Positions 1-1,431 of a stretch of 1,431 nt of DNA are shown here, one piece after another. A program made the position numbers and the translations under genes. How positions within the stretch are numbered: the stretch's first letter is position 1; each line of letters opens with the position of its first letter. The notes beneath the pieces were generated by a model, which saw only the letters and a list, made by a program, of their open reading frames with translations, did no database searches and was not told the origin of the DNA. The DNA lies in the NCBI RefSeq assembly GCF_003334385.1, contig NZ_QOWN01000113.1. The stretch is one strand, 5' to 3'. This stretch comes from Escherichia coli. Its GTDB lineage: Bacteria; Pseudomonadota; Gammaproteobacteria; Enterobacterales; Enterobacteriaceae.

Positions 1-122
1 CGCTCAAGCAACAGCGCATTCTGGCGCATGATCCGGTAAACACGTTTGGCATTGATCGCAGGCATACCATCAAGTTCGGCCTGTCTGCGAAGCAGCGCCC
101 ATACCCGACGATAACCATACGT
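1..122 (-). pseudogene. insD: Internal fragment of IS2 (IS3 family) transposase orfB/insD; 5' end and insC missing, continues past window start
   Basis: Minus-strand translation of 1-119 reads [40 protein letters not shown], which matches the IS2 InsD protein as I remember it (around residues 46-85). The frame upstream of this ([20 protein letters not shown]) is not InsD, so homology breaks near nt 122/123. No start codon or insC is present. This ORF is not in the supplied track because it runs off the window edge. Confidence 0.75.
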
Positions 123-144
123 GTCACGAACGGTGCAATAGTGA

Positions 145-169
145 TTCTTCCGCAACTTGGGTGGAAGAA
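145..169. repeat. Imperfect inverted repeat / hairpin (TTCTTCCGC-aacttgg-GTGGAAGAA)
   Basis: 145-151 TTCTTCC is the exact reverse complement of 163-169 GGAAGAA. The stem extends to 9 bp with one G-T pair (152/162) and a C-G pair (153/161), around a 7-nt loop. It lies 22 bp right of the IS2 junction and 47 bp upstream of the ORF start. No T-run follows on either strand, so it is not an intrinsic terminator. Confidence 0.4.
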
Positions 170-216
170 AATGGATGAAACTTTCTGGTGAACAAAGATC
201 TAAGCTGTTTTAAGTC

Positions 217-1359
217 ATGGGCAACTCAATGCACTCTCTTAAGACACTTCTACAGTTACCTTGCGGATGGCGATGCAGTCGACAAATTATTAGCTCTGAC
301 GGTATAACCCTCCATCTCCACGGAAAACGCAACACAGCACAATGTCCTGAATGCTTTAAGCGTAGCGACTCTGTTCATAGTTGTCGTCGGCGCCGGATAC
401 AGCATCTACCCTGCTCAGGACATACGCTATGGCTTGTATTTTCCGTCCGCCACTGGTACTGCCGTAACCCGGCTTGTTCACGTAAAATTTTTGCCGAGTC
501 GCTTGCTCCCTTCGCCGGTTCACACCAACAGTCTTCACTGGCGTTACAAAATTTACAACGTCAACTGGGATTAATCGCCGGAGGTGAGGCCGGGAAACGG
601 GTAGCAACGGCAGTGGGTCTCCGTTGCAGTGCTGATACTCTCCTTCGCAGGGTTATCAATACCCCGGAGACGAAACAGTCAGGCGCGCCTCATGTCGGTA
701 TTGATGAGTGGGCGTGGCATCGGGGCCACCGTTACGGTACGTTAATCGTCAATCTTGATACTCACCGTCCCCTCGTCCTGCTTCCCGGCCGTGATCAGCG
801 TACGCTGGCGACCTGGTTCAGAAAATATCCGGAAATACAGATTGTCTCGCGTGATCGCAGTGGAGTCTATGCGACAGCAGCACGTGAAGGTGCACCTCAG
901 GCCAGACAGGTGGCCGATCGATGGCATCTGCTAAAAAATATTGGCGATGCGCCTGAACGAATGATGTACAGACATATACCTCTGATACGTCTTGTTGCCA
1001 GTGAGTTGTCACCAAAGAAATCACCTGATCCAGAACCATCTGTGCCTGCAGCATCGCTCCGTCGTTCGGAACGCCTAAAACAACAAACCCGCAAAAAACG
1101 GCATCAGCGTTGGACAGAGGTTATGGCCCTGCATAACAAGGGATGTAGTTTCAGGGAAATATCCCGTATTACAGGCCTGTCGCGTGTGACAGTCAGTCGC
1201 TGGGGGCGTTCAGGAACATTCCCTGAAATGTCAACCCGGCCTCCAAAGCTAGGGCTTCTGGCCCCATGGAGGGAGTGGTTAAAAGAGCAACGAGAAAGTG
1301 GTAATTATAACGCTAGCCGGATATGGCGGGAAATGGTGGCCCGGGGATTTACAGCATAA
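217..1359 (+). CDS. ISL3-family-like transposase with atypical C-terminus (possibly inactive, chimeric or domesticated)
   Basis: 380-aa ORF with ATG at 217, an in-frame TAA at 211-213 just upstream, and stop TAA at 1360-1362. The N-terminus (LLQLP...CPECFKRSDSVHS...RRIQHLPCSGHTLWLVFSVRHWYCRNPACSRKIFAE) fits the zf-ISL3 pattern. An HTH-like stretch covers aa ~108-146. DDE-core motifs are present: GIDEWAW (Asp at nt 703-705), VSRDRSG (Asp at nt 853-855) and VADRWHLLKN (nt 916-918), comparable to the WDE / MDM / DRFH motifs of ISL3 transposases such as IS1167. No obvious Shine-Dalgarno sequence precedes the ATG. Confidence 0.8.
   Translation: MGNSMHSLKTLLQLPCGWRCSRQIISSDGITLHLHGKRNTAQCPECFKRSDSVHSCRRRRIQHLPCSGHTLWLVFSVRHWYCRNPACSRKIFAESLAPFAGSHQQSSLALQNLQRQLGLIAGGEAGKRVATAVGLRCSADTLLRRVINTPETKQSGAPHVGIDEWAWHRGHRYGTLIVNLDTHRPLVLLPGRDQRTLATWFRKYPEIQIVSRDRSGVYATAAREGAPQARQVADRWHLLKNIGDAPERMMYRHIPLIRLVASELSPKKSPDPEPSVPAASLRRSERLKQQTRKKRHQRWTEVMALHNKGCSFREISRITGLSRVTVSRWGRSGTFPEMSTRPPKLGLLAPWREWLKEQRESGNYNASRIWREMVARGFTA
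343..477 (+). other. Zinc-finger region (CxxC ... CxxxxC) of the ISL3-type N-terminal domain
   Basis: Cys43/Cys46 (CPEC) and Cys82/Cys87 (YCRNPAC) are spaced as in ISL3 transposase zinc fingers, with the conserved HLP..G..L.L....R.W.C block between them. Confidence 0.6.
1108..1206 (+). other. Second, C-terminal helix-turn-helix motif within the transposase-like ORF
   Basis: aa 298-330, RWTEVMALHNKGCSFREISRITGLSRVTVSRWG, has the classic L...G.S.REI....G.SR.TVSRW HTH signature. It is followed by RPPKLGLLAPWREWLKEQRESGNYNASRIWREMVARGF, which resembles the segment after the HTH in IS21 IstA and IS481-type transposases. Confidence 0.55.
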
Positions 1360-1431
1360 GCGCTAACTTAAGGGTTGTGGTATTACGCCTGATATGATTT
1401 AACGTGCCGATGAATTACTCTCACGATAACT

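Follow-up and report, generated by a model that had tools for sequence, protein, structure and literature searches.

The locus examined here raises a simple question: what is the DNA that follows a transposase-like open reading frame (ORF) beyond its tandem in-frame stops, and is this ORF a stranded gene fragment or part of a mobile element? The window, by which we mean the entire 1,431-nucleotide stretch analysed (Escherichia coli, contig NZ_QOWN01000113.1), closes with 72 bases (positions 1360-1431) that an earlier note, whose quoted letters agree with the window sequence, had described as a flank without a recognisable inverted repeat or IS2 continuation. Our comparisons give a different answer. 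Positions 1355-1431 are almost certainly the left end of a complete IS186/IS421 element (IS4 family), which transposed into the transposase gene of an ISEc38 element (ISL3 family), and this ISEc38 copy abuts a fragment of IS2 on its left.

Sequence composition of the window

The first 123 bases of the window (1-123, reverse strand) are an internal fragment of IS2, part of its transposase reading frame. They share 99.2% identity over 123 bp with positions 2501-2623 of sequence L003, a region lying within a coding sequence annotated as 'IS3-like element IS2 family transposase'. In a base-by-base comparison with L003, IS2 identity in the window was limited to positions 1-123, and the same fragment is 726 bp long in the contigs that contain the window. 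Bases 121-123 (GTG) may be part of IS2 or of ISEc38. Plasmids in which IS2 and ISEc38 are neighbours (H16 and H20) were considered as carriers of the same left junction and rejected, since they have other sequence between the IS2 piece and ISEc38 and their ISEc38 match starts at window position 137.

Positions 121-1354 (forward strand) correspond to the left 1234 bp of ISEc38, with gapless 99.1% identity to positions 1501-2734 of L002, which are annotated as 'ISL3-like element ISEc38 family transposase'. This identity ends exactly at 1354. The suggestion that the ORF belongs to a longer element was borne out, as intact ISEc38 is 1766 bp long and encodes a 539-aa transposase. The left terminal inverted repeat of ISEc38 is imperfect and about 46 bp long (121-166, forward strand), with 36 of 46 positions matching the reverse complement of the intact ISEc38 right end; window positions 122-165 are 88.6% identical over 44 bp, in inverted orientation, to the right ends in L003 and L004. 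The outermost ~16 bp vary among ISEc38 copies (L016 4779-4822; L003 ~5198-5241; L002 1501-1546 and 3221-3266). The L016 copy has at its left tip the type that L002 has at its right end, and the L003 copy has at its right tip the type that L002 has at its left end; judging from these alignments, two tip variants appear to have been exchanged between copies.

The truncated ISEc38 transposase ORF (217-1359, forward strand) consists of 379 native codons, a junction codon GCA (Ala) and a TAA supplied by IS186, and this TAA, located inside the IS186 terminal repeat, is its first in-frame stop. With 380 aa against the 539 aa of the intact protein, the product is an ISEc38 transposase cut after codon 379 and not a full-length ISL3-family transposase. 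It matches the NCBIfam ISL3 transposase model NF033550 with 260.8 bits (cutoff 180), covering profile positions 1-251 of 370 only. In the ISEc38 transposase, a segment corresponding to window 1123-1356 (residues 303-379 here and 303-398 of the intact protein) gives a match to the helix-turn-helix region at the N terminus of IS21-family transposases (NF033546), with E = 1.6e-16 in the intact transposase. This IS21-like segment sits within the ISL3 core, and the IS186 insertion falls in the same segment; its presence there would explain the length of the 539-aa protein. No RNA family was found when the window was scanned against Rfam.

The sequence does change near the tandem stops, as had been noted, and the break proved to lie at 1354/1355 and not at 1359/1360, with the foreign segment starting at 1355. 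The first 77 bp of IS186/IS421 (1355-1431, forward strand), which include the 72-bp flank, are identical base for base (77/77) to positions 1796-1872 of L001, an annotated IS421 copy, and 100% identical to thousands of other annotated copies. IS421 and IS186 are two names for essentially the same element. A search of complete E. coli genomes with the 72 bases 1360-1431 alone, as the earlier note had proposed, found 8457 places in 2188 of 5426 genomes; 2749 of the 2758 matched records showed at least 99% identity, and all matches were annotated as 'IS4-like element IS421 family transposase'. The L001 copy begins with CATAAGCGCTAACTTAAGGGTTG and ends with its perfect reverse complement, and the same 23-bp left terminal inverted repeat, CATAAGCGCTAACTTAAGGGTTG, occupies window positions 1355-1377 (forward strand), matching the other element end perfectly in inverted orientation in both L001 and L006. 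This repeat carries TAA stops at 1357, 1364 and 1369, and the IS186 end as a whole (1355-1409) has stops in all three frames. The two tandem in-frame stops (TAA 1357-1359 and TAA 1369-1371) fall within the IS186 terminal repeat and come from the foreign segment, not from the ISEc38 gene. The single IS4-type DDE transposase gene of IS186 starts at 1410 (1410-1431, forward strand; M N Y S H D N...), its first seven codons being in the window and the rest read in L006. The annotated coding sequence start at L001 1851 maps to window position 1410, as does the start of the called gene at L005 11194.

Two earlier observations on the flank were correct in themselves. No inverted copy of the left spacer is present, with zero reverse-complement 5-, 6-, 7- or 8-mers common to 1360-1431 and 123-170, and a comparison with the longer spacer 123-216 yielded one common reverse-complement 6-mer (TTAAGT). 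The zero 6-mer count says little, because shuffling the 72 bases 20,000 times gave zero in 58.6% of cases. The test did have power to detect a real repeat, since the true right end of intact ISEc38 has nine reverse-complement 6-mers in common with 123-170. Likewise, the flank does not continue IS2: a short-word BLAST search against the full IS2 region returned only chance matches of 7-8 bases (E >= 1.2).

The IS186 insertion and the state of the ISEc38 copy

Only 77 of the 1339 bp of IS186 are within the window, which stops at 1431, and whether IS186 is complete in the source of the window is judged from contigs with the exact window. The exact 380-aa protein occurs on at least 24 contigs (91 index blocks) with E. 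coli as source name, including two NCBI isolate assemblies, and a metagenome scan with the 35-base junction also found matches. The entire 1431-bp window is present exactly in nine of the contigs read. The exact ISEc38/IS186 junction was not found in complete RefSeq E. coli genomes, PLSDB plasmids, a set with one genome per species, or viral contigs; the sequences carrying it are draft assemblies and metagenome contigs.

Contig L006 contains the exact window at an offset of +9784. Its IS186 copy extends over window-equivalent positions 1355 to 2693 (1339 bp) and is 99.85% identical to L001, with perfect terminal repeats (23/23; right repeat at L006 12455-12477). The transposase is an intact 370-aa protein with zero differences from WP_001300563.1, which carries Pfam DDE_Tnp_1 and matches the IS4 model NF033592 with 133.3 bits (cutoff 115). 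The right repeat is directly followed by GGATTTACAG, after which ISEc38 continues from base 1235 onward. IS186 is thus flanked on both sides by the 10-bp direct repeat GGATTTACAG, the left copy at window positions 1345-1354 and the second at window-equivalent 2694-2703. The complete IS186, the perfect 23-bp repeats, the 10-bp duplication and the resumed ISEc38 were found together in eight of the nine exact-window contigs, and over the 2.2 kb that follow these eight show 0-2 mismatches. Gene calls across the locus gave a 380-aa ISL3 fragment, a 370-aa IS4 transposase and a 164-aa ISL3 C-terminal fragment, and the two ISL3 fragments cover positions 1-251 and 238-368 of one family model.

Alleles with an empty site are also available. 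Both intact ISEc38 (L002) and the pAA plasmid L016 read GGCCCGGGGATTTACAGGCAGTG without interruption, and in both of them GGATTTACAG is single-copy. The 10-bp target duplication and the empty-site alleles, which are the usual proof of such an event, show that IS186 entered the ISEc38 transposase gene by ordinary simple transposition. IS186 cut the target after ISEc38 base 1234, duplicating 10 bp (GGATTTACAG). The insertion split the 539-codon transposase gene after codon 379, with the IS186 repeat supplying the TAA, and displaced the rest of ISEc38 by 1339 bp to the right. With its perfect ends and intact reading frame, the IS186 copy is probably still active.

The right boundary of ISEc38, which the earlier note could not locate, is not in the window, and the remainder of the element lies beyond IS186. 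The rightward extension that the earlier note had called for was carried out on the window-containing contigs. Of the two things to be looked for there, IS2 sequence did not appear: L006 has no IS2 continuation past ISEc38, and the 21-kb locus contains no more IS2 sequence anywhere. ISEc38 itself resumes after IS186 and runs to coordinate 1744 of 1766, where it meets an IS66-family tnpC fragment. What follows position 1431 is therefore not a clear right inverted repeat with a target duplication but the rest of IS186 and then a right-truncated ISEc38 set against an IS66 fragment. The ISEc38 copy has its left terminal repeat (121-166) and an incomplete right one, which is absent from the window and lacks its outer 22 bp in the window-containing contigs. 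Target-site duplications of the ISL3 family are 8 bp in size; with the right tip deleted and IS66 tnpC sequence past the break, no such duplication is readable here.

The same junction between ISEc38 coordinate 1744 and IS66 tnpC is found at L006 12997/12998 and at 6521/6522 of the pAA plasmid L016. Because L016 has this identical junction without IS186, the right truncation of ISEc38 is, on this comparison, older than the IS186 insertion. As its transposase is without the last third of the core, the ISEc38 copy is predicted to make no working transposase and to be inactive, and with the right tip missing it would be immobile even if transposase were supplied in trans. Of the two fates suggested earlier, domestication or a remnant, the latter fits the split gene and a right terminal repeat that has lost its outer 22 bp, and nothing supports the former: the ISEc38 copy is a dead remnant.

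Alternative explanations of the junction

It is conceivable, though improbable, that the 1354/1355 junction arose by recombination or deletion at an IS186 copy, so that the IS186 right end in the source abuts unrelated DNA and the 3' part of ISEc38 is absent. Contig L011 has such a structure, with the exact window and a full IS186 followed by unrelated conjugation-type sequence and no 10-bp repeat; the other eight exact-window contigs, with their duplication and resumed ISEc38, argue against this reading. L011 moreover comes from a metagenome, where a repeat of 1.3 kb can make the assembler change paths. Even under a scenario of the L011 type, the 72 bp would still be the IS186 left end and the original event would still be an insertion at that site. 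From L011 position 3007 onward (window-equivalent 2694 onward), genes of the TraG-D_C, DtrJ-like and Plasmid_RAQPRD types stand in place of ISEc38, and their arrangement points to recombination mediated by IS186 or to a switch at the repeat during metagenome assembly. An assembly error might also be invoked for the junction itself, as a chimera of ISEc38 and IS186 read paths, because IS elements are classic points of breakage and mis-joining and two contigs (L013 and L014) end inside IS186 just past the junction. This is scarcely credible, as two NCBI assemblies of independent isolates and several metagenomes of different studies have the identical junction, and as a matching 10-bp duplication, a repeat that an artefact would not create, is found at the far end of IS186.

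A very unlikely alternative treats the ORF as an ISL3 transposase gene that was stranded or domesticated and has no element ends, with 1360-1431 as ordinary host or unidentified flanking DNA. It could draw on the lack of an inverted repeat and of an IS2 continuation in 1360-1431, and on an ISEc38 copy without a complete right end. The ISEc38 left terminal repeat is nevertheless present, and a flank that is 100% IS186 is not host or unassigned DNA. Domestication is further contradicted by an ORF that stops inside the IS186 repeat while the rest of the gene lies 1.34 kb downstream, beyond IS186, and by the 99.1% identity to mobile ISEc38 copies, whereas a gene domesticated long ago should have diverged. 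As stated, this reading is already refuted by the identity of 1355-1431 to IS186 together with the empty-site comparison. Transposition of IS186 into the ISEc38 transposase gene thus remains the preferred explanation, and the structure is an ordinary nested insertion of an already known kind.

Target site, surrounding locus and annotation

The element in the window agrees with IS186/IS421 of E. coli in the identical 23-bp repeat and transposase start at the window end and, in the contigs, in the 1339-bp length, perfect repeats, identical 370-aa transposase and duplication geometry. The last is alike here and in the reference copy L001, where the duplication GGAATGATCC lies within GGGGAATGATCCCC: in both cases it comprises GG, a 6-bp core and two more bases. 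The difference lies in the target. The published IS186 target is GGGG(N6/N7)CCCC (PMC5009759), whereas the site used here (window 1345-1358; intact ISEc38 1221-1238) is GGGG-ATTTAC-AGGC, in which only the GGGG half of the published motif is present and the other half is AGGC. The full GGGG(N6/N7)CCCC motif is absent from the whole of ISEc38. This motif describes a target preference and is not a criterion of element identity. The GGGG-only site is a minor curiosity. Two conjectures can be attached to it and to the ORF, both of them doubtful: IS186 might be able to use a half-site, one GGGG half being enough for target capture, and the 380-aa N-terminal ISEc38 fragment (zinc ribbon and part of the core) might be produced and hamper intact ISEc38 transposases of the same cell.

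Compared with intact ISEc38, the window copy keeps the left terminal repeat and the N-terminal 379 transposase codons, but it is interrupted after base 1234 and its right repeat is incomplete, so that it is neither intact nor mobile. The pAA plasmid L016, with the same ISEc38/IS66 junction and no IS186, represents the pre-insertion state. To the left of ISEc38, L016 and the window differ: the former, a canonical AAF/I pAA plasmid, has a fragment of the IS21 family, and the latter has IS2. The IS66-like part shows only 82% identity between L016 and the window's locus. A common ISEc38/IS66 junction with different left flanks implies recombination within ISEc38 between lineages.

The window's locus is like the nested IS clusters of pAA and similar E. 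coli virulence plasmids in that it piles up pieces of IS2, other IS3-family elements, ISL3, IS4, IS66 and IS110. This IS cluster is located within a locus resembling the adherence regulon of enteroaggregative E. coli (EAEC) (L006 3446-7529 and 15636-21143), and the same genes are present in L005, L007-L010 and L012. They include a 122-aa gene of the Pfam Dispersin family, FtsX/ABC (Aat-like) genes, an AraC-type regulator and chaperone-usher genes. The locus is unlike canonical pAA in that its dispersin-like protein has 44% identity to Aap of strain 042 and its AraC-type regulator at most 45% identity to any PLSDB plasmid match. A pAA plasmid of the canonical EAEC type was accordingly rejected as the host replicon, the AraC-type regulator and the Aat/dispersin-like genes being without a close match in complete genomes or plasmids. 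Against 5,426 complete E. coli genomes, megablast found essentially nothing that matches a 5.4-kb stretch with the dispersin-like and transporter genes. The locus may be an uncharacterised adherence island, so far seen only in draft genomes and gut metagenomes.

The importance of these results beyond a corrected annotation is small. The annotation of the window should show three insertion sequences, nested or abutting: a piece of IS2, an ISEc38 copy that IS186 interrupts, and the left end of IS186. The appropriate label for the 380-aa ORF is a disrupted transposase pseudogene and not a candidate domesticated gene. A transposase ORF that ends in tandem stops and is followed by an unrelated flank is a typical signature of a second insertion sequence inside a first.
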